From Clostridia bacterium (GTDB lineage: Bacteria; Bacillota; Clostridia; Oscillospirales; CAG-272), in contig JAFVRO010000014.1 in NCBI GenBank assembly GCA_017504205.1, forward strand, positions 29,133-93,132: a stretch of DNA of 64,000 bases, read 5' to 3'. The notes beneath the pieces were generated by a model. That model made no database searches, was not told the DNA's origin, and saw nothing but the letters and a program-made list of their open reading frames with translations. Below, piece after piece: positions 44,257 through 63,061 of this stretch. How positions within the stretch are numbered: the stretch's first letter is position 1; each line of letters begins with the position of its first letter. The position numbers and the translations under genes are program-made.

Positions 44257-45990
44257 ATGTCAAACAACACAGTCCGCAAGAATTATACAAGGTGGCTGAA
44301 TTGTCCTCTGTTATCAACTGAAGAACGTACAGAATTGTTATCTATCAGGGATAACGCATCGGAGGTAGAGTCACGTTTTTCATCATTCCTGTCATTTGGT
44401 ACGGCGGGGCTCAGAGGAATTATGAAGGTCGGAATGAACGCTATGAATATATACACAGTAGCGTACGCGACGCAGGCGATCGCCATTCTGATTAATGACT
44501 GCGGACGCGCAGATGACGGGGTCGCCATAGCCTATGATAGCCGCAACAATTCAGAGCTCTTTGCCAAAGAATGCGCTTGTGTACTTGCGGCCAACGGAAT
44601 CAAATCTTATATTTTTAACGGCGTACGTCCAACACCTGAATTATCGTTTGCGCTAAGGCATCTTGGTTGTGTTGCGGGAATAAACATCACTGCGTCGCAC
44701 AATCCAAAAGAATACAACGGCTACAAGGCGTATTGGGAGGACGGCGCACAGCTTCCGCCCGAGCACGCACAGACGGTAACGGACACACTTGCGACTATTG
44801 ACATTTTTGACGACGTAAAGCGAGTTCCTTTTGAAGATGGGGTAGCTTGCGGACTCATCGAGATGATAGGTGCGGACATTGACGAGGCTTACGTCAAATG
44901 TGTACTTGCTGAGGCGGTCAATCCATCTGCTATTCCCTATGTCGCTGATGATCTGAGGATTGTATTTACGCCTTTACACGGTGCGGGCTACAAGCTTGTC
45001 CCGGAAGTGCTTCGAAGAAGCGGAGTCAAGCATTTATTCATCGTCCCCGAGCAGGCGACGCCCTGCGGTGACTTTCCTACCGTTTCCAAGCCTAATCCCG
45101 AATTTCCCGAGGTCTTCAAGCTTGGAATCGAGATTGCCGAGCGAGAGAAGAGTGATCTGATCATAGCGTGTGACCCCGATGCTGACCGCGTTGGAGTTAT
45201 GGCGCGAAAAGCTGACGGCACGTTTACGACGATCTCAGGCAACCAGATGGGGGCTTTGTTATTGGACTATATTATCACGGCTTACAAGAAAACCGGCACG
45301 ATGCCCGAGGAGCCTTATGCGGTCAAGTCGATCGTCTCGACGGTTCTTGCGTCCAAAATATGTCAGACGCACGGAGTTGAAATGTTCAATGTTCTCACGG
45401 GCTTCAAGTTTATCGGTGAGGTCATAAAAAATCACGAAGCAGGTGGCCGTGGCAGCTTCATTTTTGGATTCGAGGAAAGCTACGGTTATCTCAAGGGAAC
45501 CTATGCGCGTGACAAGGATGCGGTGGTAGCAACGATGCTGATCACGGAAATGACTGCTTATTACAGAACATTGGGACTTACCATTTACGAAGCACTTGAG
45601 CGACTCTGGGAAAGATACGGCTTCTATTATGAGCAGACGGTTCAGGAGGAAATAAAGGGGATCGATGCCCCCATGAAGATGGCGGCACTTATGGCAGCAT
45701 TCCGTTCCGACTTCCCTTTAGTATTTGGCGGTCAGGCGGTAAAAGTCATAGGCGACTATCTTGAGGGGACATTTACCGATGTTGCTACCGGCGAAAAGAC
45801 TCCTACGGGGCTTCCTGCATCCGACGTATTATACTACGTTCTTGAGAACGGTGACACGGTAGTGGTTCGTCCTTCGGGAACTGAACCGAAGGTAAAATTC
45901 TATTTCCTTGTTTCCGGAAGCGGTGTTGAGCAGGCTCAGAATCAGATCAACAAGTACAGAGAACAGATTGCTTCGATAGCAGTTCTTTGA
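44257..45990 (+). CDS. pgm: Phosphoglucomutase/phosphomannomutase
   Basis: FGTAGLRG, TASHNP, DPDADR, FEESYG, RPSGTEPK. Confidence 0.93.
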   Translation: MSNNTVRKNYTRWLNCPLLSTEERTELLSIRDNASEVESRFSSFLSFGTAGLRGIMKVGMNAMNIYTVAYATQAIAILINDCGRADDGVAIAYDSRNNSELFAKECACVLAANGIKSYIFNGVRPTPELSFALRHLGCVAGINITASHNPKEYNGYKAYWEDGAQLPPEHAQTVTDTLATIDIFDDVKRVPFEDGVACGLIEMIGADIDEAYVKCVLAEAVNPSAIPYVADDLRIVFTPLHGAGYKLVPEVLRRSGVKHLFIVPEQATPCGDFPTVSKPNPEFPEVFKLGIEIAEREKSDLIIACDPDADRVGVMARKADGTFTTISGNQMGALLLDYIITAYKKTGTMPEEPYAVKSIVSTVLASKICQTHGVEMFNVLTGFKFIGEVIKNHEAGGRGSFIFGFEESYGYLKGTYARDKDAVVATMLITEMTAYYRTLGLTIYEALERLWERYGFYYEQTVQEEIKGIDAPMKMAALMAAFRSDFPLVFGGQAVKVIGDYLEGTFTDVATGEKTPTGLPASDVLYYVLENGDTVVVRPSGTEPKVKFYFLVSGSGVEQAQNQINKYREQIASIAVL

Positions 45991-46024
45991 TGCGATTGTC
46001 ACTATTTAAATAGCGGAGGTTAAA

Positions 46025-47152
46025 ATGGCTTTTTCGATAAATATTCCCTGCAGGATTTATTCCGGCACGGGTTGTGTAAAAGCGCACGGCACGGAGTTTG
46101 CACTTGGAAATCGGGCATTTATAGTTACAGGAAAAAGCTCTGCCAAATTATGCGGAGCGCTTGATGACGTATGTAGCGTACTGGCAGGTATTGGCGTAGG
46201 ATTTGAGATCTACTCGGGAGTGCGTGAAAATCCGCCTGTAACTGATTGCTTTGAGGCGGGACGCATATGCGCTGACAAGGGATGTGATTTCGTTATAGCG
46301 ATTGGCGGTGGGTCGGCTATGGATGCGGCTAAGGCTATTGCGGCATTTGCAACCACTGAATATGCCGAATGCACTGACATTTTTGATTATTCAAAAAAGA
46401 AGGCACCGTCACTTCCTTTGATCTGCATACCGACTACTGCCGGTACGGGAAGTGAGGGAAACCGTTATTCGGTACTTACCCTTCCTGATGGCAAGCGCAA
46501 GCGCACGTTTTCGCACGACGATTCGTGGGCAAAGAAGGTATTTCTTGATCCGAAATACACATACACGCTCTCTCGCGAGTACACTTTCAGCACGGCACTT
46601 GATGCTTTCCATCACGCGATGGAGTCGTATTTATCTCCAAAGTCCGATGATTTGTCAAGGATGCTTGCAATATATGCGGCGAGAAACATATGGGACGTGC
46701 TTTCCCAACTTCCCGAGCAGTTCAGTGAGAATATGAGGGCAAGTCTGCTTTACGCATCCTGCGCGGCGGGAATTGCTATAAGTGTTACGGGAACAGGATT
46801 TCCGCATCCGTTGGGATACAGTTTGACCTTGCTTGACGGCATTCCTCACGGCAAGGCATGTGCGGCGTTTGCTGCGGATTATATTGAGTACAACCGCAAG
46901 AATGAGCTTGGCGAGACATTGATCGGTGAATTTTGCGCGGCTCTCGGAGTAAAAGTAAAGGTTTTGGGAGAACTTCTTGTAGGTCTTGCATCGGTTGATC
47001 TATGCATGACAGAGGAACAAATAGCAGAGCATGTTGAGCTTATCAAAAGTGCGGGCAACTATGCTAACAGTCCTTACGTTCTGAGTGTTGATGAGATGTA
47101 TGACATATACAGGAAGCATTTTGCGGCGAAACGAAAGAGAGGCAACTGTTAA
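46025..47152 (+). CDS. Iron-containing alcohol dehydrogenase
   Basis: GGGSAMDAAK, PTTAGTGSE, DAFHHAMES, HPLGY, HG. Confidence 0.9.
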   Translation: MAFSINIPCRIYSGTGCVKAHGTEFALGNRAFIVTGKSSAKLCGALDDVCSVLAGIGVGFEIYSGVRENPPVTDCFEAGRICADKGCDFVIAIGGGSAMDAAKAIAAFATTEYAECTDIFDYSKKKAPSLPLICIPTTAGTGSEGNRYSVLTLPDGKRKRTFSHDDSWAKKVFLDPKYTYTLSREYTFSTALDAFHHAMESYLSPKSDDLSRMLAIYAARNIWDVLSQLPEQFSENMRASLLYASCAAGIAISVTGTGFPHPLGYSLTLLDGIPHGKACAAFAADYIEYNRKNELGETLIGEFCAALGVKVKVLGELLVGLASVDLCMTEEQIAEHVELIKSAGNYANSPYVLSVDEMYDIYRKHFAAKRKRGNC

Positions 47153-47153
47153 A

Positions 47154-47834
47154 ATGTTTGAAGAATTAAGAAAAAAGGCATATGAAGCGAATATTGCTCT
47201 TTACAGGAGTGGGTTAGTTTCATTCGACAGCGAAAACGTATCTGTCATTGACAATGAAAGGGCGCATATTGCGCTCAAGCCTGCAAACATTTCCTTTGAA
47301 GAGCTTACCGAGCAGGACATGCTTGTATATGATATTGACGGTAATATTATTCTCGGCACCGATAATCCTTTGCCTGATGCCATTACACAACTTGAGCTTT
47401 ACAGGTGTTTTGAGAGTATAAACAGCATTGTGCATACTTATTCATTATATGCAACCTCATTTGCGCAGGCGGGACGTTCCATTAAGCCTTACGGCGCGTC
47501 TCATGCGATCCTCTTCCCTGTTGCAGTGCCTTGCACTCGCAAGATGACGCACACGGAGGTAACGCAGGATTTTGAGAAGAGTCTTGCATCCATCATTATT
47601 TCTACAATCGAATCGTTAGGAGCTGACAAGCTTCGCGCGGTACTCGTTCATTCGCAATCTGTATTCGCTTGGGGTAATGATCCGATGGAAGCGGTACGCA
47701 CTGCCGTTGCTCTTGAGCGTATAGCACAAATGGCTTTCAACACAGAGCTTCTTCAGGTAACCATTGGACAAAATGGCGGTGTACCGATGCCTCAGGATCT
47801 CATTGCAAGGCTAAGAGACAGAGCGAATAACTGA
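47154..47834 (+). CDS. AraD-like class II aldolase/epimerase homolog, metal ligands substituted
   Basis: AraD scaffold (AYEAN..L, NVS, ATSFAQAG..I, VPCTR.MT, FAWG), but HTHS reads HTYS and HSHG reads HSQS. Confidence 0.8.
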   Translation: MFEELRKKAYEANIALYRSGLVSFDSENVSVIDNERAHIALKPANISFEELTEQDMLVYDIDGNIILGTDNPLPDAITQLELYRCFESINSIVHTYSLYATSFAQAGRSIKPYGASHAILFPVAVPCTRKMTHTEVTQDFEKSLASIIISTIESLGADKLRAVLVHSQSVFAWGNDPMEAVRTAVALERIAQMAFNTELLQVTIGQNGGVPMPQDLIARLRDRANN

Positions 47835-47852
47835 TATTCTGACAGGAGAGCT

Positions 47853-49013
47853 TTGATGAGTAAAAAACGTATTACTTCACTGTGCCTTATGATCGCGTTA
47901 CTTTTAACGTCTGTATTACAGCTTACTGCGTGCGGCTACGTACTGCCGGGTAATACCAATAGCGTCACCGCGGACACCAATGATAAATCTGACGATACGG
48001 AGCCTGATGCAGTTGCCCCGTCCTCGGATTTTCTGTTAACTCAGGAAGAGGTGTCGGGAGATACGTCCTTTGCGCTCTATGCGGTATACAGAAGATATGC
48101 AAGTGAGGCGCTTCTTATACCCGGATTGAAGCAATATTTAGTGCCTCAGGGAATGGATATCTGGGATGAAAAAAATCTGCTTATTATTTCCGGGTATTTT
48201 TCAGCAGACAGTGTAATCGACTCTTCAGTTCTGATGGCAATAGATCTTGCAAGCGGAAATTATGTGGGTGAATATTACATAAAAAATGCTGACGGAACTA
48301 AAAACAAGAGTCACGTTGGCGGTATTGCAATAACAGAAAAAGATCTGTTTATTTCGAGCGGAAACAAGCTGCACAGGATACCGCTTTCTGCGTTAGAGGA
48401 TGCCAAAGACCATGGAGATGTAACAATTATTGAAAGCATTTCCGTTCCATGCAACGCTTCGTTCTGCAATTATTCGGGCGGCGTATTATGGGTTGGAGAT
48501 TTCTTTCTGAAGGAATCATATCCTACGGATGAATACCGTCACTTGATAAACCGTGACGGTGAGCAATATTATGCGTGGTGCGTAGGGTACAAGGTAGATT
48601 CATCCTCAAAAAACGGATTAGCTTTTGACTTGCCGACAAATGACGGATTTGCGACACCCGATTATGTTTTGTCGATTCAGGAAAAAATCCAGGGATTTAC
48701 CGTATTATCGGACAAGCGTATAGTATTGAGTCAATCGTACGGGCGAGGCAACAATTCAAGGCTATATTTCTACGAAAATGTCTTAGACACTGATGCGCAT
48801 ACCACCGTTGAGTTAAACGGGCGTGATATTCCGGTATGGTTTTTGGACGGTAAATGTGAAAAAGACATAATTATTGCGCCCCCGATGGCGGAGGGAATCT
48901 GTGAAAAAGATGGAAATCTTTACGTCCTATATGAGTCAGGAGCGGACAAGTACCGTAACAATGGAGGCAAGTACCCTACGGATCACGTTTGGGTGATTAG
49001 CGCACCGGATTAA
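47853..49013 (+). CDS. Lipoprotein, probable beta-propeller
   Basis: Lipobox LTAC; blade-like motifs VPQGM, HVGGIA, IQGF, MAEGI. Confidence 0.7.
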   Translation: MMSKKRITSLCLMIALLLTSVLQLTACGYVLPGNTNSVTADTNDKSDDTEPDAVAPSSDFLLTQEEVSGDTSFALYAVYRRYASEALLIPGLKQYLVPQGMDIWDEKNLLIISGYFSADSVIDSSVLMAIDLASGNYVGEYYIKNADGTKNKSHVGGIAITEKDLFISSGNKLHRIPLSALEDAKDHGDVTIIESISVPCNASFCNYSGGVLWVGDFFLKESYPTDEYRHLINRDGEQYYAWCVGYKVDSSSKNGLAFDLPTNDGFATPDYVLSIQEKIQGFTVLSDKRIVLSQSYGRGNNSRLYFYENVLDTDAHTTVELNGRDIPVWFLDGKCEKDIIIAPPMAEGICEKDGNLYVLYESGADKYRNNGGKYPTDHVWVISAPD

Positions 49014-49049
49014 GATTTTTGATAAATATTAAATAGTATTAATGTAATA

Positions 49050-49082
49050 TGCCCCCAAAAAGTCAGATGCTTTTTGGGGGCA
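49050..49082. repeat. Perfect 13-bp inverted repeat (terminator, possibly IS-end derived)
   Basis: TGCCCCCAAAAAG-7nt-CTTTTTGGGGGCA between convergent genes. Confidence 0.7.
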
Positions 49083-49133
49083 ACCTTTATGTAAAAGAAC
49101 GATGTATGACAGAGAAGATTCAATTAATGCGAA

Positions 49134-49964
49134 TTATATTTGTGCACGTCTGTATTGAGAGGGTGATACGCCGAACTCTTTCTTGAACATGTGGTTAAAA
49201 TTTGACAAGGATGAAAAACCGCATTCCGCGCAAATCTCAATAATGTGCTTTTTAGTAGTAATGAGGAGTAGCTTCGCATGATTCAATCTGAGCTGCATCA
49301 GAAAATCAACATATTTTTTCCCCGTAATTTCATGAAAGTGCTTACTGAAATAGCTGGCAGAATATCCGCTTATTCTTGCCATATCTCCAAGTGACGGCGC
49401 TTCATTGAAATGAAGGAAAAGGTATCTCATGCACTTATAGATGGGATCGATTGTCCCCAAATCCTCTCCGCCATCCTTACCGTCCAAATCTGCATGTCTT
49501 AACAAGAAAATCAAGAGGCATTCAAGCAGATTCTTCTTATCCAAGTCGGAATATACATCCTCCACAGGTTCTTCAAGCATTGAAACGATAAACAATACTT
49601 TATTCAGATCGTCATCATTCAGCTCAAAAACATTATTTGAACTACGGTTAATAAGCGAGTTCAACAGACGCTTCGATACAGTATTGTTATCAAATTCAAT
49701 GTTAAGCAGTTCAAGATCATCAGGTATTATCAAGCAGTGAAAATCCGCAGGCGACAAAAAATAAGCGCTACCTTTTTTTAGCGGATACATACATCCATTA
49801 AGATTGTGATATCCGCCGCCGCATAATATAATTTCAATCTCATAGTAGGCGTGCATATGCATCCTTGTGTTTTTATTTATAACTTTCCTTCTTACAGATA
49901 TTCCATGGGTATCATCCGACCACTTTTTGGAAAAAACGGGAGTAGGTGAAGAGTCCATATACAC
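49134..49964 (-). CDS. AraC-family regulator with cupin sensor domain
   Basis: HMHAYYEI; C-terminal YFSKHF..ITG, CGFSSLSNF..MFKKEFGVSPSQYR. Confidence 0.92.
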   Translation of the reverse strand: MYMDSSPTPVFSKKWSDDTHGISVRRKVINKNTRMHMHAYYEIEIILCGGGYHNLNGCMYPLKKGSAYFLSPADFHCLIIPDDLELLNIEFDNNTVSKRLLNSLINRSSNNVFELNDDDLNKVLFIVSMLEEPVEDVYSDLDKKNLLECLLIFLLRHADLDGKDGGEDLGTIDPIYKCMRYLFLHFNEAPSLGDMARISGYSASYFSKHFHEITGKKYVDFLMQLRLNHAKLLLITTKKHIIEICAECGFSSLSNFNHMFKKEFGVSPSQYRRAQI

Positions 49965-50034
49965 GACCTCCTTTTTAGGTTTTTATATATTATACTACAT
50001 TGTTGTTATTTTTTCAAGTGTTTTCACTTAAATG

Positions 50035-50096
50035 CAAAAAATGTGCAATATTACCACAAAAAAGAACAAGATATTTTTCAAATCCTGTGATATTAT
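50035..50096 (+). promoter_or_regulatory. Putative AraC direct-repeat sites and extended -10 of the GH38 operon
   Basis: AAAAATGTGCAA and AAAAAAGAACAA, 21 bp apart, upstream of TGnTATTAT (50091-50096). Confidence 0.4.
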
Positions 50097-50170
50097 TAAA
50101 ATACATATGTATCATATATGAAATGCACGTTGTGAAAAGCAACGGTATAATTAAATAAGGAGAAGAAAAA

Positions 50171-52606
50171 ATGAGTCAAAAAAAGAAGATTTACTTTATT
50201 GGTAATGCGCATTTGGATCCCGTATGGATGTGGCGTTGGCAAGAGGGGTCCGCAGAGGCAAAGGCAACAATACGCAGTGCTCTTGACCGAATGAATGAGT
50301 ACCCCGAATTCAAATTTGTATGCTCAGCTTCTGCGATTTTTGAATGGATAGAAGAATTTGATCCGACAATGTTTGAAGAGATAAAGAAACGTGTTACAGA
50401 GGGTAGATTCATTCTCGTAGGCGGATGGTATATACAACCTGACTGCAATAATCCGTCAGGAGAGAGCTTCGCAAGACACAGTCTTTACGCACAGAGGTAT
50501 TTTAAGAATCAATTTGGAAAAACGGCAACTATTGGGTACAACGTTGACTCCTTTGGTCACAACGGTATGCTTCCTCAAATACTAAAAAAATCCGGTATGG
50601 ACAAATATGTATTTATGCGTCCGGGGTTAAATGAAAAGGACATGCCAAGCGAGCTTTTTAAATGGCAATCTCCCGATGGCTCGCAAGTTCTTGCCTGGAG
50701 GATAGTAGCAGGATATACGGGAAATGTAAAAAACATAGATGAGTTGGAAACAAAATTTTCCAAGGCGATCAACCTTTCACGAAACGACACTGATGCTATA
50801 ATGCTATTCTATGGAGTTGGTAATCACGGTGGTGGACCTACAAAGACCAATATAAATACCGTACTTGAATTCCGCGCAAAATATCCCGACAAGGAGATAA
50901 TCTTTTCCGATCTGGATGATTTTTTCCAATACGTTATGCCTATGTCTGACAGTTTCCCAGTCCATAATGATGACTTACAGCATCACGCAAGTGGGTGCTA
51001 CTCTGCTGTATCGTTTATAAAAAATGCTATACGCAGAGGTGAGAATGCATTGTATGCTGCAGAGGTATACGCATTTATGGGAAATAAGATTCTCGGCAGA
51101 AGCTTTGATTCCAAGGCGTTTGAGGCGGCTTGGAAGAACGTACTGTTCTGTCACTTCCATGATATAATGGGAGGGTGCTCCATAAAGGATGCTTATACAG
51201 ACGCAGGCTATATGATAGGTGAGACTATGTCATTTGCAATGAAAACCGAGAACAATGCGCTCCAGAGCATTTCCTGGGCGATTGACACTGCCGATCCACA
51301 AAAAGGTCTACCTATTGTTATATTCAATCCCCATGGATTTGATGTTGAGGATATGGTTACTATAAACAAGCAGGTTGCAAGAATATGTGACGAGGATGAC
51401 AACGATGTAGAGATACAGCTTGTTCGTTCTCAGACCTTTAGCTGCAAGAAGCGTTCTGACACGGCATTTGTCGCAAAGGTTCCCGCTATGGGCTATGCAA
51501 CCTATTATATAAAGCCTGCCCTTCCCGTAGACGAATCTACTACCGTAAATATGGAAGATGCGCCTGTTGAAGAGCCTGTTCTTCATATTGACGGTATGAT
51601 TATGGAAAACGATATCTTCCGTATAGAGTTTGAGAAGCACACGGGATATATAAAATCAATATTTGATAAGACCACCGAAACCGAGCTTATAGACGGCTTT
51701 GGTGCAGTTCCCACCGTTTACGACGAATATAAGCATGATACTTGGTCTCATGCGCTTAATTTCTTTGACCGTGAGATAGCGAAATTTGCGGACGCAGAGT
51801 TCAAGATAGTGGAAACGGGGCCTATCCGCGTTACTATGAAAGTAGTAAACCGCTACAATAACTCTACGCTTACACAATACATAAGCCTTCGTAAGGGCTC
51901 AAAGACAATAGACGTAAGGGCAAATGTTGATTGGCACGAAAGGCATAAAATGCTCAAGCTTGCATATAGCACCACGATTACGGATTCCAAAGCATACTAT
52001 GAGATTCCATTCGGGGTTATCAGCCGTCCCACCGACGGTGAAGAAGAGCCCGGACTTGGATTTATCGCGCTCAGAAATGAGGAACGCGGCTTGGCTATCC
52101 TGAACAATAATAAATACAGTTTCTCTGTAACGGGCAATGTAATGAATCTCACCGTAGTCCGTAGTCCGCTATTTGGAGATCATGGACGTGGCCGTGATGA
52201 CGAATGTGAATTTACCGATCAAGGAAGCCACGATTTTGCATATTCTATTATGCCTATCCGCAATAATGGCTGGAGCGAGGTTGCAAAGGAAGCAAGAAAG
52301 CTCAATCTTCCTATGACAAACATCATGGAAAACAATCATAAAGGTACTCTTAGTCATACCTTCAAGGGATTTGAATGCTCCGCAGAAAACATAATCGTTA
52401 CAGCAATCAAGGCATCCGAGGATGGTAAGGGTATGGTTATAAGAGCCTACGAAACAGATGGAGTTGATACCAATGCTGTAATATCGGGCGCGCTCCTCCC
52501 TGCCGAGCTCGAGGCTCATTTTGGGGCATATAGCGTAAACACCTATTATTACTCTTATGAAACAAATGAATGGAAGGAAGTTCTCATAACCGAGTACGAC
52601 ATATGA
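50171..52606 (+). CDS. GH38 alpha-mannosidase-family glycoside hydrolase (cytoplasmic)
   Basis: NAHLDPVWMWRW, GGWYIQPD.N.PSGES, DSFGH, YGVGNHGGGP, FHDI; no signal peptide. Confidence 0.92.
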   Translation: MSQKKKIYFIGNAHLDPVWMWRWQEGSAEAKATIRSALDRMNEYPEFKFVCSASAIFEWIEEFDPTMFEEIKKRVTEGRFILVGGWYIQPDCNNPSGESFARHSLYAQRYFKNQFGKTATIGYNVDSFGHNGMLPQILKKSGMDKYVFMRPGLNEKDMPSELFKWQSPDGSQVLAWRIVAGYTGNVKNIDELETKFSKAINLSRNDTDAIMLFYGVGNHGGGPTKTNINTVLEFRAKYPDKEIIFSDLDDFFQYVMPMSDSFPVHNDDLQHHASGCYSAVSFIKNAIRRGENALYAAEVYAFMGNKILGRSFDSKAFEAAWKNVLFCHFHDIMGGCSIKDAYTDAGYMIGETMSFAMKTENNALQSISWAIDTADPQKGLPIVIFNPHGFDVEDMVTINKQVARICDEDDNDVEIQLVRSQTFSCKKRSDTAFVAKVPAMGYATYYIKPALPVDESTTVNMEDAPVEEPVLHIDGMIMENDIFRIEFEKHTGYIKSIFDKTTETELIDGFGAVPTVYDEYKHDTWSHALNFFDREIAKFADAEFKIVETGPIRVTMKVVNRYNNSTLTQYISLRKGSKTIDVRANVDWHERHKMLKLAYSTTITDSKAYYEIPFGVISRPTDGEEEPGLGFIALRNEERGLAILNNNKYSFSVTGNVMNLTVVRSPLFGDHGRGRDDECEFTDQGSHDFAYSIMPIRNNGWSEVAKEARKLNLPMTNIMENNHKGTLSHTFKGFECSAENIIVTAIKASEDGKGMVIRAYETDGVDTNAVISGALLPAELEAHFGAYSVNTYYYSYETNEWKEVLITEYDI

Positions 52607-52607
52607 T

Positions 52608-53543
52608 ATGAAAATTGGAATAGATATCGGCGGTACAAAATGTGCCGTTGTCCTTGGCGACAACACTCATATTGAAAAGAAAATTAAATTTGCGACCACT
52701 ACCTGTGAGGAAACTCTGGAAAAAATTTTTAATGCAGTATCGGAAATAGGTGTAGGAGATGCTATCGGGGTATCATGCGGAGGCCCTCTTGACGAGGCAA
52801 GAGGGATAATACTATCCCCACCTAACCTTATCGGTTGGGACAACGTACACATAACCGAAATGCTTAGCGACAGATTTGGTGTTCCCGCATACCTATGTAA
52901 CGATGCCAATGCTTGTGCCTTGGCGGAATGGAAGTATGGAGCGGGCAGAGGGGCAAGGAATATGATATTTCTTACCTTCGGTACGGGATTTGGTGCAGGT
53001 CTCATACTGGACGGACATCTCTACAGCGGTACGAGCGGCATGGCGGGCGAAATAGGACACATAAGACTATCTGATTACGGTCCTGTAGGGTATGGAAAGC
53101 GAGGTTCGATCGAGGGCTTTTGCAGCGGCGGCGGTATTGCTCAAATTGGAAAAATGCTTGCGCTTGAAAAGCTTCAAAGCGGTTTAACGCTTCCATATTG
53201 TAAAGGCATTTCAGAACTTGATCAAATAAACGCAAAAATACTTGCCGACTACGCGGAACTTGGTGAGGAGGTAGGGTTAAAAGCGTATGAAATATGCGGA
53301 GAAATGCTTGGCCAGAGCATTTCAATGCTAATCGATCTGCTTAATCCCGAAGTGATCGTAATTGGAAGTATATTTACTCGCTCAGAAAAGCTTATACGAC
53401 CTCATATGGAAAGAATACTGAGTAATGAAACGCTCATCTCGTCTCGATCCGTGTGTCGCATTCTGCCTGCGGCGCTTGGTGAGAGCATAGGTGATTTTGC
53501 CGCGCTTGCGGTTGCGTTTGAAGGAGGTGAACAAAGTGCTTAA
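52608..53543 (+). CDS. ROK-family sugar kinase
   Basis: IGIDIGGTK, NDANACALAE, GTGFGAG, GEIGH; no HTH. Confidence 0.9.
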   Translation: MKIGIDIGGTKCAVVLGDNTHIEKKIKFATTTCEETLEKIFNAVSEIGVGDAIGVSCGGPLDEARGIILSPPNLIGWDNVHITEMLSDRFGVPAYLCNDANACALAEWKYGAGRGARNMIFLTFGTGFGAGLILDGHLYSGTSGMAGEIGHIRLSDYGPVGYGKRGSIEGFCSGGGIAQIGKMLALEKLQSGLTLPYCKGISELDQINAKILADYAELGEEVGLKAYEICGEMLGQSISMLIDLLNPEVIVIGSIFTRSEKLIRPHMERILSNETLISSRSVCRILPAALGESIGDFAALAVAFEGGEQSA

Positions 53544-54177
53544 CGAACTTATGACACGATACCCCCAACTCAAGGTTTGTGAGGAATCGATACTGACAGC
53601 TGAAAAAATGATGCTTGATACCTATCTCAAGGGAGGAAAAATACTCGTTTGCGGAAACGGCGGATCAGCGGCCGACGCAGACCACATAGTAGGTGAGCTT
53701 ATGAAGGGTTTTTTACTGAGAAGAAAAATGTCCCCACTGACAGCCAAAAAATTTGAAGCTGCACTTGGCAGTGATGCAGAGGAATTTATTAAAAAGCTTC
53801 AATGTGGAATTCCCGCAATTTCGCTCCCCGCGCAGAGCGCGGTACTATCCGCTTATGCAAATGATGTGGATGCCGAGCTTATGTATTCTCAGCTCGTTTT
53901 TGGATACGCGATGGATGAGGATATGCTGATAGCCATCTCTACCTCAGGAAATTCGAAAAATGTTTTTGCCGCTGCAAAAGTGGCAAAGGCAATTGGAATA
54001 AAGACGTTAGCTCTTACGGGCGGGGCGGACAGTAAGCTTTCTGCACTATGCGACTGTACAGTTAAGGTTCCGGAAAGCGAAACATTTAAAATTCAAGAGC
54101 TTCATCTGCCGGTGTATCATTATCTTTGTGCATCTGTCGAGCGCACGCTATTCAATACGCGAGATGACAATCAGTAA
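53536..54177 (+). CDS. GmhA-type SIS phosphosugar isomerase
   Basis: CGNGGSAADADH..GEL, ISTSGNS, IQELHL..YH. GTG start after AGGAGG, overlapping the kinase stop. Confidence 0.88.
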   Translation: MLNELMTRYPQLKVCEESILTAEKMMLDTYLKGGKILVCGNGGSAADADHIVGELMKGFLLRRKMSPLTAKKFEAALGSDAEEFIKKLQCGIPAISLPAQSAVLSAYANDVDAELMYSQLVFGYAMDEDMLIAISTSGNSKNVFAAAKVAKAIGIKTLALTGGADSKLSALCDCTVKVPESETFKIQELHLPVYHYLCASVERTLFNTRDDNQ

Positions 54178-54334
54178 AGAGGTCAAAAGTTCTTGTCTTT
54201 GATTATTATCTCACTTATAATTCTTCAGATTCCTGCGATACACGGTTGCAGAGCAGCAAACAACCCCTTCGATTTACATACATAACGATTGAGATTGTGA
54301 GAAGCCGGGAATCTGACGAGTATGAGCAATAAAT

Positions 54335-54362
54335 GGGCTGTCTCATTTGCGTGAGACAGCCC
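54335..54362. repeat. Second copy of the GGGCTGTCTCA palindrome
   Basis: GGGCTGTCTCA-tttgcg-TGAGACAGCCC; its reverse complement matches 40665-40692 with one loop mismatch. Confidence 0.75.
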
Positions 54363-54370
54363 GTTAATCT

Positions 54371-55612
54371 TTATTTTATATAGTTACTGTTTGCATCCTT
54401 CCCCGTTTTGGCTTTGTAGTCCTCGAGGGAGGTAAAGCTTTCACCACCGAAGTGGATAAGAAGTCTTGAATTTGGGGTATATACGTTATTATCAAGTTCG
54501 ATACGAGCCTCGGCATCGGGCGAAATGATTGAATAAATGGCGGCTCCCACGGGAGCAGGTCCAAAGACGTTATTTTTTATTTCAACGTAGCTTTCCGCAT
54601 CTGCTTTTTCTATACGCCAAAGGAAGATATGATGCCCCATGGGCTGAGGCCAAATCTCGCTACTGCGCGGGTCTCCCTCCCCGAGCATCGCAAATCCGCA
54701 TCCTGCGTTCAGACATACGTTATTAGTAAAGCAGGAATTGATCGGAAGCTTATCTCTGTATTCAAACGCTGCCATTCCGTAGGTATCGAAAACGTTATTT
54801 CGGCAAATAAAATTGCGCGCGGTTACAGTTTGGTCACCCGGACCCTGATGAGTTACGCAAGAATCATAGATGTTTTTGAACATACATCCTTCAACGGTTA
54901 CGTTATCACCGTGTGTCCAGAGTTCTACGCCGTTACCGAATCGTATGCGCAGCTCTTTGCTCCAGACGCAACCACCGATATTCACAAAATCGCAATTCTG
55001 CACGGTAATATTTTCACCACGGCCTGCAAGTCCATGAACGCCACTATTCATAAATTTAAGGTCTTTAAACGTAGTGTGCGATCTGAGTATACCAAGATTC
55101 CTTGTGAAAAAACTAATTCCCTCAATATGAGAATAAACAACGGCAGGATTACCAATTGAGTATAAAAGAACTGTCTGCGAGGTTTTAACGTGTGATGAGG
55201 GTTTTTCGCCGTAACGTGAATCCCAGAAGTCGCCTTGGGAGACAAGATCCTCCGTTGTCCATCTTAACGTTGCAAAAGACTCGACGCCGTCCTTTGTAAA
55301 CACAAAATTTCCGACGTTACCATCAATTTTTTTGGCACATTCCCAGACATTTGGCGTTTCAGTTTCAATCCAATCAGCAACATCGCTAAGATCTGCCGAT
55401 CCGCAAAACGTGGGCTTTTCACCTTCCCCGTAGGCTCCGTACGTTATTCCCTCCTTTGTCTCGAGGTTTGAGCGATAGAATGAGCCGCGCTTAAACAAAA
55501 CGGTATCACCGCGACTAAGGGTTGAAATATTTGAAATGGAATCAAGCGGTGTGTTTTCGGAACAACCGTCGTTTGTTGTCAGTCCGTTAATGTTATCAAT
55601 ATAATAAGTCAC
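54371..55612 (-). CDS. Right-handed parallel beta-helix (pectin-lyase-like) protein
   Basis: YYID..NG...NDG, GDTVLFKRG, YGAYGEGEKP, repeated N..V.NC.F.N coils; no signal peptide. Confidence 0.8.
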   Translation of the reverse strand: MTYYIDNINGLTTNDGCSENTPLDSISNISTLSRGDTVLFKRGSFYRSNLETKEGITYGAYGEGEKPTFCGSADLSDVADWIETETPNVWECAKKIDGNVGNFVFTKDGVESFATLRWTTEDLVSQGDFWDSRYGEKPSSHVKTSQTVLLYSIGNPAVVYSHIEGISFFTRNLGILRSHTTFKDLKFMNSGVHGLAGRGENITVQNCDFVNIGGCVWSKELRIRFGNGVELWTHGDNVTVEGCMFKNIYDSCVTHQGPGDQTVTARNFICRNNVFDTYGMAAFEYRDKLPINSCFTNNVCLNAGCGFAMLGEGDPRSSEIWPQPMGHHIFLWRIEKADAESYVEIKNNVFGPAPVGAAIYSIISPDAEARIELDNNVYTPNSRLLIHFGGESFTSLEDYKAKTGKDANSNYIK

Positions 55613-55650
55613 TGTTTTTCTCCTTATTCATTTTTTGATAACGCTTGTCT

Positions 55651-56247
55651 TTATCGCTTCAGTAACTCCACGGCATTTTTGTAACAGACACGGTCTGTAA
55701 GAATATTCAATGCCTCAAGAAGCGCATTAGCGGTCATTCCGCAAGGGAGGTCAAACTGTACGGCAAGGCTATCGCGTAGCTCGGTACTGTTTTTACCGCC
55801 GCTGAGTCCGTCGTTAAAGAAATCGGTTTTTGTTATGGGATCGTCTGAGCTTTTCAGAGGTGCATCCTCCGAATATGGTTTGAGCAAAGAGACAAGCACC
55901 TCCGCCTTCATTCCCTCTACCCCAAGAGTGCCCTCGGCGGATGGTGCAGATTTACGCTTTTCCTTCCCTTTGATTTGGGGTATATACAGTGATATGATCC
56001 TATCTTTTGGGATAAATGATTTTATATGTGAGCGGATCATCGCTCCTGCTTTATCGCTGTCCGTCAAGATTATCAATGGGCGCTCACGCGTAAGGGCTTT
56101 TATAAGGGCTTTCTTTTCCGTGCTTTTGAAAACGCCGAATCCGTTGGTTGTAATGACGGTGGCGTTTGCAATACCGAGTATTGCGGCGCGGTCATATTTT
56201 CCTTCTACGAGAATAGGATATGAGATATTCAGCTTTTCGTTAGTCAT
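55651..56247 (-). CDS. rnmV: Ribonuclease M5-like (Toprim + DUF4093)
   Basis: ILVEGKYD, LTDSD.AG..IR, LGVEG. Confidence 0.85.
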   Translation of the reverse strand: MTNEKLNISYPILVEGKYDRAAILGIANATVITTNGFGVFKSTEKKALIKALTRERPLIILTDSDKAGAMIRSHIKSFIPKDRIISLYIPQIKGKEKRKSAPSAEGTLGVEGMKAEVLVSLLKPYSEDAPLKSSDDPITKTDFFNDGLSGGKNSTELRDSLAVQFDLPCGMTANALLEALNILTDRVCYKNAVELLKR

Positions 56248-56270
56248 GTTTAATGTCCTTTCCCATAGAG

Positions 56271-57098
56271 TTACAAGATAAAAAATATTATTATCACCAA
56301 TGCAAGCACAATACGATATATGCCAAACACGGTAAGCTTACGTGTTCTTACGAAATCCATAAGGAAGTGTATGGTTATCAATGAAACTGCGAATGCAGTT
56401 ATTGCGCTCACTGTCAAGGCTATAATCTGCTCCGCAGTCAAAGCTATTCCGCATTTTTGAATAAAGCGCGTCGCCTTAAGCAGAGACGCGCCTATCATTG
56501 TTGGAATAGCAAGAAAAAATGAAAACTCTGCGGATGTACTACGATCAAGTCCAAGCAACAAGCCACCAAGGATTGTTGAGCCTGAGCGTGAGGTACCCGG
56601 AATGCAGGAAAGGGCTTGAAAAAAACCGATTGCGGCAGCATGGGGTACAGTAATCTCTGAACTTTGCTTGAGTTGCCTTCTCTTCTCCACGAAGATAAAC
56701 GCACTGCCGTAGATAATCAGGGTTATTGCGACAGTGGAAACGTTCATAAGGTGTGCCGAAATAAATTCATCAAGTTTCAGTGCGATTATCACGAGTGGTA
56801 TTTCTGCAACAGCGACCTTGAGCCAAAGAAAGAGGGTGTTCTTTTTTTCTTCCAATGACTTCTTCCTTGAGAATGGATTCAGTTTATAAAAGAAAGTTAC
56901 TGCAACGGCGAGAATTGATCCGAGTTGTATAAAAACAAAAAACAGTTCCTTGAATGCCTCAGTTTCTCCCGGCAGTGGAAAACCCAACAACGCATCCATG
57001 AGCAGCATATGGCCCGTTGAGCTGATTGGTAGCCATTCGGTTATCCCTTGGACGATGCCATAGAGGATAGATATCAGTATTATTTTTAAAATTTGCAT
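56271..57098 (-). CDS. uppP: Undecaprenyl-diphosphate phosphatase
   Basis: GIVQGITEWLPISSTGH, IQLG, PGTSRSGSTI, EFSFFLAIP. Confidence 0.95.
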   Translation of the reverse strand: MQILKIILISILYGIVQGITEWLPISSTGHMLLMDALLGFPLPGETEAFKELFFVFIQLGSILAVAVTFFYKLNPFSRKKSLEEKKNTLFLWLKVAVAEIPLVIIALKLDEFISAHLMNVSTVAITLIIYGSAFIFVEKRRQLKQSSEITVPHAAAIGFFQALSCIPGTSRSGSTILGGLLLGLDRSTSAEFSFFLAIPTMIGASLLKATRFIQKCGIALTAEQIIALTVSAITAFAVSLITIHFLMDFVRTRKLTVFGIYRIVLALVIIIFFIL

Positions 57099-57252
57099 AT
57101 TATGTAAAGCAGGCAGCAGGACTTTAGCGTATTGCTAATAGTGAACACTAATATACTTCAGTGTTTTTTACCGTCCGGTCTTTATCAATGGACTATTTAT
57201 AATATAATACTGAATTGCAGAAAAAATTCGTATCGGCAGATATTTTTTGTTT

Positions 57253-58335
57253 TTAACCTACGATGTACTCAAGTCTTTCAAGCAGAGATATGAAATCCGC
57301 ATCCTCGATGAGGAAGGCATAGCGCTTATGTCCGAGCTTATAGAGCAACTCTTCAGCAAGATAATACACGTCGGTTGTTTCGGTTTTATCGATAGTATCG
57401 AATACTCCGTACTCACGCCTGATCAATGACGGTGATACGGTTGGTGTATCGAGCAATTTTTCAAGTATTGTAACGCTTGCGTCGAGTTCCTTGATAGTAT
57501 TCGCGGTATCACCAAGCTCGGCATATATTACAGAAGCATAGCGATGAACGTCGCACATAAGCTCCGTACCTCTATCTGCCTCATTTTCAAGCAGTGCACC
57601 GTATATTCCGACTATTTTATTGAGTAATACTATTTTTTCCTCGGCGGAATATGCATCGCAAAATGCCAATGCGCGAAGTCTCTGGCAGAGTGCATCAGTA
57701 TAGGTTATTATATTATCCTTTATAAGGTCAATCTTTTCGTTATCTCGGCACAGAGCGATCCTGATCTTATCAGCAGTGATACATGACGAGGGGAAGCGAT
57801 TCACCACTGCAAGAGCTTTATCGGTCTCGCCGCGGGATGAGTATATCGCGCTGAGTATCTCGATGGTTGAGTATCTGTAATTATCCACGGTGCAATTATC
57901 AAGTATCTCCTCGCAGAGCTTCACTGCTTCGTCGAGGAAAGTGGGTTCAAGCTCGGCATGATATGCGGCGTAGGTGGTATAGAGTTTTTGGACAAGCTCG
58001 GACTTCATCAACCAATTATTTGGATATTTTGCCACGCCGTTTCTAAGAAGTGAGAGACTTTTTTCGTTTTTATCCTGTGCGCTCTCAAGGTCGGCTGACT
58101 TCTGTATTATAATCTCTATTGCGGCATTCACATCAGTGTTATCGAGTCCGAAAAGGAGATCTGTGGTTACCTCGAAAAGATTTGCTATGATGGGAATCAG
58201 ATGCAGGTCGGGCATTGCAAGCCCATTTTCCCAACGCGAAACTGCCTGCGGAGAGATATTGAGGTAATCTGCAAGCTTTTCCTGGGTCATGTTTTGCTCT
58301 CTTCTGAGACGCTTAATTGTTTTTCCAATATTCAT
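57253..58335 (-). CDS. XRE HTH regulator with TPR-like C-terminus
   Basis: IGKTIKRLR...MTQEKLA..L.ISPQAVSRWENG..MPD; helical remainder. Confidence 0.88.
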   Translation of the reverse strand: MNIGKTIKRLRREQNMTQEKLADYLNISPQAVSRWENGLAMPDLHLIPIIANLFEVTTDLLFGLDNTDVNAAIEIIIQKSADLESAQDKNEKSLSLLRNGVAKYPNNWLMKSELVQKLYTTYAAYHAELEPTFLDEAVKLCEEILDNCTVDNYRYSTIEILSAIYSSRGETDKALAVVNRFPSSCITADKIRIALCRDNEKIDLIKDNIITYTDALCQRLRALAFCDAYSAEEKIVLLNKIVGIYGALLENEADRGTELMCDVHRYASVIYAELGDTANTIKELDASVTILEKLLDTPTVSPSLIRREYGVFDTIDKTETTDVYYLAEELLYKLGHKRYAFLIEDADFISLLERLEYIVG

Positions 58336-58376
58336 TTTTGACCTCCGTTAAAACTGTAATTAGCGGTTGGTATCGG

Positions 58377-61300
58377 TTATGTGTCTTTGTTGGTATCGTT
58401 TTTGGGCGCGCGAGGAAGCTTTTCCATACGGGCACTTGGAAGTGTAGTTCTTTCCCTCTTTTCCTTGCCCGTTTTTTTGAAAAACGGTGCGCGTTTGGGT
58501 GACTCTTGGGAAGGAGCAGAAGTAGGTGTCGATGTCATTCGCTCCGGCCTAACACTTGTGGGCGATTCGGGGACTTCGTCATTTAGCTTTTGTGGCTCCG
58601 TCGAAGTCGTTGAGGTCACTTGATTCTGTGGTACATCGCCGGAAGTTTCGGCATCATTTTTAATCGGTTCTGATGCTGTAGAAGCTTCCTGAGATTCGGT
58701 GATCTCTGAAGATTTTGCAACATTACGGGGGGTATCAATAGGTTTTACTTCGGGAGCTTCCGCTTTTGGCACATCCTTTTGAGAATCAGGCTCTTGGGGT
58801 GTTTTTTTGGCGAATATTGAAAATATGCTCCTCTTTTTTCCAAGTATATCGGGCGCTACTGCTTCCATTAGTGTATAAAGTTGTGGAAATCCTTCAGTGA
58901 TCTGCATAGCGCATTTTTTAACCAGTTTACGGCTCTTAGGTGCGTTTTCCTTTACAAAGGACTCAAAGAAGCGAAGAGTCAGTGATGATTCACCGCTTTT
59001 GTAGAGCAAATTCACGAGGGAGGCGTTGACGTCGAGCGTTTTACACATTTTGCAGAAATCGACAGCTGCCTTGAAGGTAAGCTCGGCAAGCATTACGTTG
59101 TCTACCTTGATCTCATTAGCCGGAACCGTCTTATTCTTCTTTCTGAGTTCTGCCTGCTTATTTGCGACGTAGAGTGTACGCAGCTTTGCCATACACTTTC
59201 CATAGACTTCACCAAAGGATTGATTATTGGATGAGTCCAGAATGAATGGGATAGCTAATGCGGTGTAATACTCAAGCGCGATCTCAGGGGTTATGGGCTT
59301 TAAAAATTTAGCGTCCTCGGAATAAAGCTTACCGAAATAATACTCAAGTAATTCAGCGGCATCAAGTGTCATACAAGGTGATTTTGCCAAGCTTATCAGC
59401 TGCTTTACTGCGCCCTGAACGTTATGGTTTCTCATTTGTTTATACAAATTATCCGCCATAACGATCGTGGGGAATTCTTGAGCTGACGCATAGTCTGCGT
59501 TCGAGGTTATATATTCGGTAACGTACGGCAGGCAATCCTCACGAATCTGATATTTGAATGTCTCGGCGAGTTTTGAGGTTATGATAGGCTTAATTGCGGT
59601 CTGATAAAGTTCTGAATACAACTTACTTGCAAGAGGCGAGTTGATTTGTGTTAATGCAGAGCGCATCTCTTGGTCAAGAGCGATAAAATCAAACAGATTA
59701 CGCTTTTTGCGGTTAGCCTCTACAAGTTTAAAGAGACCGTTTTCAAGTGCAGATATGACCTCATCGGGCATTTCCGCGTAATTGCCGCACAAAACAGCGA
59801 TGGAATCAACCACTCCGTCAAGGCTTTTACCGAGTAACATATTACCGAGGAAGTATTCAAACACCTTGACGTTTTTAAGGTCAATAATTATTACTGCAAG
59901 CAGTTGTGCAGACATTGGGCGCAGGTTATACGGATCGCTGAAGATGAGATCTATAAGTTTTCTGTCTCCTGAGGCAAATGTTTTTTCGATACGGAGGAAG
60001 ATGCTTCTGACTATGGATCTCTGCACCTTTGGTTCTTCGTCGGTTATATGTTCTTCGAAGAAATTTATAATTTTCTGTGAGAGCTTATCTGCCTCGGGAA
60101 GCTCCTCAAGCATAGCCCCTCTGACTATTGAGCGAAGGCCTGCGGGAAGCCCTGCGTAGTGGTTATTGAGGAAGGTGATGATCTGATCCTGTATCTGCTC
60201 ACTTCTTATGGAGGCCATAAGCTTTTTGATGATATTTTCTTTTACATCGTCATCTTCGTTCTCGAAGTCTTCGTCGAAAAAGTTAAGTAGCTGAGATTGG
60301 AGAAACTGACCGTAGAAAACGCGGGTAAGGTTTTCCATAATCACGAGCTTTGCTTCTTTGGTTTCGGTTATATAATTTTTGCGTATGAACTGAAATAGCT
60401 TTTCGCGCATAATGTCGGTATGGATAAGTGTAAGAACGGGCTCCATCATTACCGCGCGGCATTCTTTTGTATCCGAGGGATAAAGCTTTTGAAGTTTTCC
60501 AAATACGTTGGGTGGGATAGCTCTCTTTTCGGATGAATATCTTGAGAGCGCAGCAAGCACGCAACATCTTTCGTCGGTTGCAAGGTATTGCTTAAATCTC
60601 TCATATGCGCATAGCAGGTTATAAATTGCGTCATCATTTGGAAGCACACCTGCGTCGTTATCTTCGGCATTTGTAATTTTATTGAAAAGCAGAATGATAC
60701 TGCTCATATTTTCAAACTTATAATCTTGAGTTTTTGGCATCATGCGGCAAGCAAATTCGATAAAATTCGTGCGTTTTTGAGCATTCTCAAGCAAACTGTA
60801 AAGAAATTCAACGTCATGTTTATACTTTTTATATGTTGAATCCTCTTCCTTCACACCTATAACGGTATTATTCTTAAAATTGAATATGAAAGCGTTACTT
60901 TTATTGATCAGGGGGAGTTGTTGGTCAATACCGTATACGAATTTCACATTAAAGAAGGTCATATTCGATTTACGCACAGATGCTGAAAATGAAATTATTG
61001 AAACCCTTCTTCTGATATGATGAGGAAATACGGAGAGTATTTTATTAAGGAGTTCGATGGACTTTTGGGAGTATGATTCGATACTTGCATCAATATCTAT
61101 ATATATTGATTTTGAGCCCTTACCTGAAGTTGTTACAAGGAGGGCGTAAATCAGACCATGGAGCAGACGTGAGTCATATTCTTCAGTCAATGTGCTTACG
61201 TCGCCGACGGACTCCGGAATATAATTAAGTTGGGGATAATCGACGGATGGTGCATCGCTATTAACTGAAATGTGGGTGACGTCATCAAAGCCACAGGCGA

Positions 61301-61685: not shown

Positions 61686-61777
61686 TTTTGTTTTCCTTTT
61701 CAATATTATCAAATCATCCGAATGATTCAGACGGATTGTCAACCATTCGGATGATTCTTTTAGGGTATAGGATCTGA

Positions 61778-63007: not shown

Positions 63008-63061
63008 CTTTCTGTTAACCTTTTAACGCGTATCAAAGACACTTTAAATCAAGGTTATAGT

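Follow-up and report, generated by a model that had tools for sequence, protein, structure and literature searches.

What sugar feeds an operon whose glycosidase looks like a mannosidase while its isomerase looks like an enzyme of heptose metabolism? The question is raised by a locus in a 64,000-nt stretch of DNA (the window: positions 29,133 to 93,132 of contig JAFVRO010000014.1, assembly GCA_017504205.1) from a gut Clostridia bacterium of the order Oscillospirales, whose source genome is a 947-kb metagenome-assembled genome (MAG) that is 52% complete. Here a gene for an AraC-family regulator is divergent from three closely packed genes encoding a glycoside hydrolase family 38 (GH38) protein, a ROK-family sugar kinase and a SIS-domain protein of the GmhA type, which ordinarily supplies seven-carbon sugars for cell walls. 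With a regulator, a putatively cytosolic exo-glycosidase, a kinase and an aldose-phosphate/ketose-phosphate isomerase, the operon has the architecture of glycoside catabolism. Two facts about it conflict, however: the isomerase is GmhA in every testable respect, and the glycosidases are mannosidases. The explanation we tentatively put first, with slightly more doubt than confidence, is that the ROK kinase phosphorylates manno-configured sugars and the SIS protein turns heptose-7-phosphate (heptose-7-P) into sedoheptulose-7-phosphate (sedoheptulose-7-P).

The coordinates bear out the first-pass annotation of the locus, which had described araC as divergent from a tight GH38-ROK-SIS operon: GH38 and ROK are separated by a 1-bp gap, and ROK and SIS overlap by 8 bp, the SIS start being the GTG at 53536, five bases past the ribosome-binding site GGAGGTG (the longest SIS open reading frame [ORF] begins at 53491). 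For comparison we used 80 related loci, which hold SIS relatives of 51-77% identity and come from species-representative genomes, most of them MAGs; their genes were called with a simple ORF picker and tblastn, and counts were taken from the tblastn coordinates. Cultured carriers include Fictibacillus fluitans NE201 and Hungatella effluvii DSM 24995. The full order, AraC<GH38>ROK>SIS, recurs in L003, L007, L008, L046, L051, L054 and L088, and GH38>ROK>SIS in L004, L005 and L063, so that the trio proposed by the annotation is conserved and its arrangement is not due to chance.

The conserved core of the operon is the ROK-SIS pair. A ROK gene lies next to SIS on the same strand (gap of at most 150 nt) in 58 of the 80 loci; in 6 others the distance is 250-3006 nt. 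It is absent from 9, and contig ends leave 7 not evaluable, giving 64 of 73 evaluable loci with ROK. The two are often one protein: a search for longer homologues returned 562 matches at E <=1e-30, and 96 of those listed (120) join ROK to SIS in a single chain of about 500-550 aa, with ROK N-terminal in 95. The few of these fusions that are named at all carry the name 'glucokinase'. In 150 genomes of the same order, each at least 90% complete, SIS was found in 32 (about one in five), and a ROK orthologue (E <=1e-50) in 27, all 27 of them SIS-positive, as against none of the 118 SIS-negative genomes; a phylum-wide sample of 400 added five genomes with the orthologue from outside the order, again all SIS-positive. 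All such co-occurrence counts overstate the evidence, because related genomes are not independent. The kinase gene is within 1.5 kb of SIS in 16 of the 27 genomes and apart from it in 9, and where SIS stands alone with ROK elsewhere its neighbours are mixed, except for a GSU2086-family gene in one family. Adjacency, fusion and perfect co-occurrence agree with the earlier proposal that ROK and SIS are consecutive enzymes. A prediction of the ROK-SIS complex scored 0.00, gave no verdict and counts neither way.

The kinase itself is a clear ROK protein. ROK kinases are recognised by an ATP-binding DxGxT motif and a catalytic Asp, and commonly by a cysteine-rich zinc motif, CxCGxxGCxE. Here the ROK domain (PF00480, 180.5 bits) spans residues 3-300 of 311, with no N-terminal DNA-binding domain, and it carries the motifs GIDIGGTK, NDAN and GEIGH, which do not vary across alignment A2; the zinc motif is not found in this protein, the corresponding region being GPVGYGKRGSIEGFCSG, without cysteines. 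It scores under every NCBIfam cut-off, and the closest matches in the PDB are to glucokinases and ManNAc kinase.

The SIS protein is, by residues, fold and phylogeny, a true GmhA-type enzyme, as the annotation had held from its motifs. These could be placed at residues 47-55 (DADHIVGEL), 135-140 (STSGNS) and 187-195 (QELHLPVYH). The protein aligns to Burkholderia pseudomallei GmhA over residues 27-62 and, ungapped, over 91-207, so that D47, H50, E54, Q187 and H195 match D61, H64, E68, Q175 and H183 of that enzyme and S135-S140 its phosphate loop, S-T-S-G-x-S; the mutants D61A, H64Q and Q175E of GmhA are named in PDB entry titles. The catalytic and zinc residues and the phosphate loop vary little or not at all among 165 ROK-linked SIS sequences and in alignment A1. 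In a Foldseek search of the PDB with the AlphaFold2 (AF2) model (pLDDT 89.8), which has the single-SIS-domain GmhA fold, the top matches were all GmhA (TM 0.75-0.86), and down to rank 36 every entry (probability 1.00, TM 0.64-0.86) was GmhA or phosphoheptose isomerase except DiaA at ranks 21 and 23 and one hypothetical protein. Pfam found no cupin domain of the type I phosphomannose isomerase (PMI) in the protein.

What sets the subfamily, of which at least 7999 homologues were scored, apart from compact GmhA is an insertion of about 26 aa (residues about 61-90) after the HxxxE helix, with a confident helix at 67-87 in the AF2 model. Because it splits the match in two, the best NCBIfam matches, four GmhA equivalogs at 130-132 bits, all stay under their cut-offs of 209-320 (130.8 bits against 209.45 for TIGR00441, 132.5 against 276 for NF010546), and the sole NCBI-sourced name listed is therefore 'SIS domain-containing protein'. 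Where the sources name members of the subfamily at all, they use that name or 'D-sedoheptulose 7-phosphate isomerase'.

Fusions of the subfamily to heptose enzymes point the same way. Members with 45-55% identity to the window's SIS protein, the insertion kept, are fused to four kinds of partner: GmhB (NF006506, 179-186 bits, cut-off 178; TIGR00213, 152-160 bits, cut-off 149.6), an rfaE_dom_I-like PfkB kinase resembling HldA, a nucleotidyltransferase together with GmhB, and KdsC-like phosphatases. The last kind (P0155, P0158, P0176, P0214, P0224 and P0225; C-terminal, NF007019 90-99 bits, under cut-off) mirrors the kinase fusion, and such proteins might turn sedoheptulose-7-P into free heptose. 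In a FastTree phylogeny of 209 SIS domains (the window, the 80 loci, 5 further genome loci, 3 outgroup fusions and 120 fused proteins; 120 stand-alone SIS proteins of unknown context were left out, and support values are local SH-like only), three ROK fusions are the sister group of a clade made up of the GmhB and nucleotidyltransferase fusions, which lies inside the ROK-linked sequences, and L076, with a PfkB-HAD fusion upstream of SIS, groups among ROK-linked neighbours. Alignment columns with conservation of 85% or more among the 165 ROK-linked sequences have the same majority residue in 17 biosynthetic-type ones, save for C39/A, so that the sequences give no hint of a switch to another substrate. 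From the GmhB fusions and this nesting, the window's protein would be expected to interconvert sedoheptulose-7-P and D-glycero-D-manno-heptose-7-P.

The glycosidases tell a different story. The window's GH38 protein has the N-terminal catalytic domain (Glyco_hydro_38N, PF01074, 204 bits), the middle domain (Alpha-mann_mid, PF09261, 50 bits) and the C-terminal domain (38C, PF07748, 130 bits), which place it among the GH38 alpha-mannosidases, its activity being predicted accordingly. The catalytic domain begins at residue 6, leaving no signal peptide, and the enzyme appears to be of the cytosolic type. Among proteins of solved structure it is closest to Ams1 (249 bits) and then to the alpha-mannosidase entries 7ufr-7ufu, which we take to be human MAN2C1. 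We know of no heptosidase. The proposal that GH38 frees a manno-heptose is unsupported, the closest relatives of the enzyme being the cytosolic alpha-mannosidases Ams1 and, presumably, MAN2C1. Mannosidase-family genes accompany ROK in 34 of the 64 ROK-containing loci, GH38 in 13 and a GH2_13-like protein of about 770 aa in 21. Nor does this second frequent partner lend support to heptose release, since its best solved relative is CapGH2b (562 bits), a GH2_13 enzyme that is encoded in a beta-heteromannan locus and was assayed as a beta-mannosidase (PMC12770490).

If mannose is what the glycosidases deliver, the SIS protein might simply be a non-canonical mannose-6-phosphate isomerase: GH38 or GH2_13 would free mannose, ROK would make mannose-6-phosphate (mannose-6-P) and SIS fructose-6-phosphate (fructose-6-P), with the type I PMI, ManA, as a partly redundant isozyme. 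We regard this as the strongest competitor, though as less likely than the heptose model. It requires just one new activity, and the reaction is the hexose counterpart of that of GmhA, with the same manno configuration at C2. It sits well with the mannosidase-family genes at the loci and with the distribution of GH38, found in 26 of 32 SIS-positive but 22 of 118 SIS-negative genomes, and the ROK-SIS fusions imply that what the kinase makes is passed on to the isomerase. No genome was found to have the ROK orthologue but not SIS, yet 6 of 32 have it without ManA. Three genomes (G082, with six GH38 matches, G016 and G190) have mannosidases, ROK and SIS and no recognisable type I or II PMI, which fits SIS acting on mannose-6-P. 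However, 8 of the 22 GH38-positive, SIS-negative genomes also lack ManA, so that a missing PMI is weak evidence. At L036 a GH130 phosphorylase-family gene lies between SIS and a gene for a HAD protein, resembling an order of phosphorylase, mutase and isomerase. Six of the 80 loci, and L100 besides, have such a HAD protein (300-320 aa) instead of ROK upstream of SIS (Table 1), often after a PNPOx/Nim-like gene; a 308-aa example, which may be a mutase or a phosphatase, gave no PDB relative and no NCBIfam assignment.

The distribution of ManA speaks against that account. ManA is commoner, not rarer, where SIS is present (27 of 32 SIS-positive against 34 of 118 SIS-negative genomes; among GH38-positive genomes, 24 of 26 against 14 of 22), which is the opposite of the anti-correlation that a substitute enzyme would give. 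It directly follows ROK-SIS at L045 (TIGR00218, above cut-off) and is convergent to ROK-SIS at L054, and the window's own MAG encodes it (C1:6017-6319), so that SIS is not needed there for mannose. Displacement of ManA by SIS as a sole explanation is rejected on these grounds. The annotation's statement that mannose would need a ManA-type isomerase and not GmhA does not of itself deny the SIS protein activity on mannose-6-P. A mannose-6-P isomerase would also have to be reconciled with the subfamily's fusions to GmhB, to an HldA-like kinase and to a nucleotidyltransferase, which are intermixed with the ROK-linked proteins in the tree and show no differing conserved residue. Finally, it leaves the operonic transaldolase unexplained, save by that enzyme's use of fructose-6-P. 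A transaldolase gene (TIGR00875, 322-332 bits, cut-off 246) is same-strand and contiguous with ROK, SIS or the glycoside hydrolase in 7 of the 80 loci, in three gene orders and in three of the seven alongside GH38 or GH2_13. Its presence makes sense in a heptose operon, since a C7 ketose phosphate cannot be consumed on balance without transaldolase or a bypass, and it counts in favour of the pathway that the annotation proposed. A GH38-transaldolase neighbourhood in the SIS-negative genome G065 proved convergent, not operonic, and was set aside.

Could the pair instead build heptose? ROK-SIS might be an alternative biosynthetic entry for surface glycans, ROK being a heptose-7-P 1-kinase or a sedoheptulose kinase; we consider this improbable. 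GmhA does normally precede a kinase in its pathway, and in the variants L070 (342-3797) and L122 (4081-8624) ROK and an insertion-type SIS fill the GmhA role and are accompanied in their operon by genes for an rfaE_dom_I-like kinase, a HAD enzyme and a GSU2086-family protein. These two loci, however, already have a PfkB kinase for the 1-position, and ROK kinases are not known to act on an anomeric position. The loci at large hold AraC regulators and glycoside hydrolases, not glycosyltransferases, and the carriers are poor in the rest of the pathway: GmhB-like genes occur in 6 of 151 genomes and in 2 of the 27 with both ROK and SIS, a gmhA above cut-off in none of the 151, and 25 of the 27 yielded no gene of nucleotide-heptose biosynthesis. 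Since nearly all carriers lack GmhB, the pair is unlikely to be biosynthetic, and the catabolic or salvage role that the annotation had favoured gains ground. Its remark that no gmhB, hldE, nucleotidyltransferase or glycosyltransferase lies nearby agrees with our scan of 13 ORFs (44257-61742, Pfam and NCBIfam), which found none; no GmhB, heptose kinase or nucleotidyltransferase partner was found in the window and no GmhB in its MAG, where absences count little because the genome is 52% complete. Less probable still is that SIS is a phosphosugar-sensing regulatory partner of ROK, on the model of the SIS-fold glucokinase regulatory protein that controls mammalian glucokinase: tight pairing and fusion would suit it, as would the example of DiaA, which shows that paralogues of GmhA can give up their role as enzymes (91 bits for the window's SIS against the DiaA model), but the catalytic and zinc-binding residues are all invariant across the 165 ROK-linked sequences and the same subfamily serves as isomerase in the GmhB fusions.

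Where heptose derivatives are made in the order, other paralogues are used. In L090 a nucleotidyltransferase-GmhB fusion (best heptose-specific match HddC, under cut-off) adjoins a compact GmhA, and a second conserved heptose-related module (Table 1) consists of a GmhA-HAD fusion of about 470 aa, a GSU2086-family protein (NF052581, 385-410 bits) and an rfaE_dom_I-like PfkB kinase. At L058 (2280-9313), labelled Candidatus Saccharibacteria, an insertion-type SIS gene lies in a glycosyltransferase/UDP-GlcNAc 2-epimerase/HAD-IIIA cluster; this context is biosynthetic, and the taxonomic label may deserve a check.

We are thus left with a model that uses two isomerases. The AraC protein would control a cytosolic mannoside-utilisation operon, whose last two genes would form a conserved, often fused, two-step salvage module. 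ROK would phosphorylate the terminal primary hydroxyl of free manno-configured aldoses, and SIS would run the GmhA reaction backwards, from D-glycero-D-manno-heptose-7-P to sedoheptulose-7-P and so into the pentose phosphate pathway. Mannose released by GH38 would be phosphorylated by the same ROK kinase and isomerised by ManA encoded elsewhere; the kinase would have two products and hence need two isomerases. The heptose might come from a side activity of the mannosidases on manno-heptosides, or as free heptose from the capsules, lipopolysaccharide (LPS) cores or S-layer glycans of other microbes. We prefer this model because it covers the GmhA-type isomerase, the mannosidases, and a ROK kinase that is always with SIS and nearly always with ManA. 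From the heptose-scavenging pathway first proposed, it keeps the conserved trio, the GmhA-type SIS and the catabolic setting; heptose release by GH38 is the part that found no support.

Several observations weigh against a heptose substrate. A kinase-isomerase fusion suggests that the main product of the kinase is the substrate of the isomerase, and by context the main sugar is mannose. Where ROK and SIS are separated, the ROK orthologue adjoins ManA in G010, G036 and G057, all of one genus, so that mannose is presumably at least one ROK substrate; in five genomes it adjoins GH38 alone, SIS lying elsewhere. The glycosidases adjoining ROK-SIS come from families known solely as mannosidases, and the three PMI-less mannosidase carriers named above count here as well. 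Transaldolase, which also handles fructose-6-P, shows no enrichment at the genome level (11 of 32 SIS-positive and 37 of 118 SIS-negative genomes). To these are added the relatedness of the genomes counted and the incompleteness of the window's own.

A broader form of the heptose model, on which we would place somewhat less weight again, is that the ROK-GmhA pair, alone or fused, is the core of free D-glycero-D-manno-heptose catabolism in gut and rumen Clostridia, by way of heptose-7-P and sedoheptulose-7-P and with transaldolase in some operons. Some GH38 and GH2_13 enzymes would then be manno-heptosidases acting on the capsules, LPS cores and S-layer glycans of other microbes, and the KdsC-like fusions would make free heptose.

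Among known systems, the GmhA of ADP- and GDP-heptose biosynthesis shares with the window's protein the fold and the catalytic and zinc residues, and relatives of the latter are fused to that pathway's enzymes. Unlike it, the window's SIS has the helical insertion, scores below the cut-off in all four NCBIfam gmhA models, and partners ROK and mannosidases in genomes without GmhB, which implies a reverse, catabolic direction or another substrate. Mannoside and N-glycan loci of Firmicutes, of the Streptococcus pneumoniae and S. pyogenes type, also pair a cytosolic GH38 with a ROK kinase and process imported mannosides. To our knowledge they hold no GmhA-type isomerase, whereas here the isomerase is the most constant partner of the kinase. 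Mannokinase with ManA follows the same logic of hydrolase, kinase and aldose-phosphate/ketose-phosphate isomerase, but the operon's isomerase has a SIS and not a cupin fold and co-occurs with ManA. The Escherichia coli allose pathway likewise joins a ROK kinase for a rare aldose (AlsK) to an isomerase borrowed from central or biosynthetic metabolism (RpiB/AlsI); RpiB accepts allose-6-phosphate, one carbon above its usual substrate, which by analogy may serve as a precedent for an isomerase that tolerates one carbon more or fewer, although the isomerase fold is unrelated and that operon has no glycosidase. In the full-text literature searched, which covers few subscription journals and no supplements, we found nothing relevant on heptose catabolism, utilisation or salvage or on a heptosidase, and nothing on GmhA with ROK or a mannosidase, GH38 with phosphoheptose isomerase, or SIS with mannose-6-phosphate isomerase; within that coverage, the heptose-consuming route is undescribed, as the annotation had supposed.

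Table 1. Coordinates of the operon and its control elements in the window, and of two kinds of related locus (numbered within each locus)
Feature	Position	Strand	Description and basis
AraC-family regulator	49134-49964	minus	276 aa, divergent to the operon; Pfam, NCBIfam
Divergent control region	49965-50170		206 bp, AT-rich; includes the GH38 ribosome-binding site
GH38 alpha-mannosidase (predicted)	50171-52606	plus	811 aa; Pfam domains
ROK-family sugar kinase	52608-53543	plus	311 aa; Pfam ROK
GmhA-type SIS isomerase (predicted)	53536-54177	plus	213 aa; SIS_2 + SIS, GmhA alignments, AF2 model
Stem-loop terminator	54332-54365	plus	common to the SIS gene and convergent 54371-55612
HAD-SIS loci	L033:5572-7579, L050, L057, L074, L100:5006-6576, L036:3908-6639
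GmhA-HAD / GSU2086 / PfkB module	L083:2995-6699, L084:5957-9692, L085:5916-9356, L091; also L092-L095

The regulator has HTH_18 (84.8 bits), HTH_AraC and AraC_binding domains in Pfam; its best NCBIfam match, RhaS, reaches 81 bits and stays under its cut-off, and a homologue is present in 23 of the 80 related loci. The divergent spacer has promoter-like sites on the minus strand at 50017-49989 (11/12, for araC) and on the plus strand at 50075-50115 (9/12), such sites being no commoner in this region than in shuffled sequence. The stem-loop beyond SIS has 15 pairs, 7 of them G-C, and a T-rich tail, and was called on both strands. The convergent gene it shares (54371-55612, minus) encodes a 413-aa protein with no known-family signal beyond a sub-threshold right-handed beta-helix match (24.8 bits, cut-off 25.9).

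Just upstream of araC, a co-oriented run on the plus strand (46025-49013) encodes an Fe-alcohol dehydrogenase, an AraD-like class II aldolase/epimerase with scores under cut-offs, and a 386-aa ORF without a match in Pfam or NCBIfam; a 577-aa PGM/PMM-family gene (44257-45990) precedes it. Farther downstream (57253-63967, minus) lie a 1121-aa protein whose sole domain is GAP1-N2 (GTPase-associated protein 1, 34.8 bits), a 360-aa HTH_3 protein with weak matches to RstR and spr1629-type repressors, and 409-aa and 301-aa ORFs without a Pfam match; this region may be a conflict or defence island.

Heptoses go into the making of LPS, capsules and S-layers, and in the form of ADP-heptose they are signals to innate immunity. 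The ROK-SIS pair may be the first known route for eating them or a new kind of mannose-6-phosphate isomerase, and either of these surviving readings would be new. The module is widespread, with at least 7999 SIS homologues scored, 96 of the 120 listed longer homologues fused and SIS in about a fifth of the sampled genomes of the order. If SIS isomerises mannose-6-P, it would represent a new, SIS-fold class of phosphomannose isomerase and alter the prediction of mannose use from genomes; if the heptose route is true, it would be the first heptose catabolism or salvage in gut Firmicutes and would touch the turnover of a microbial immune signal.

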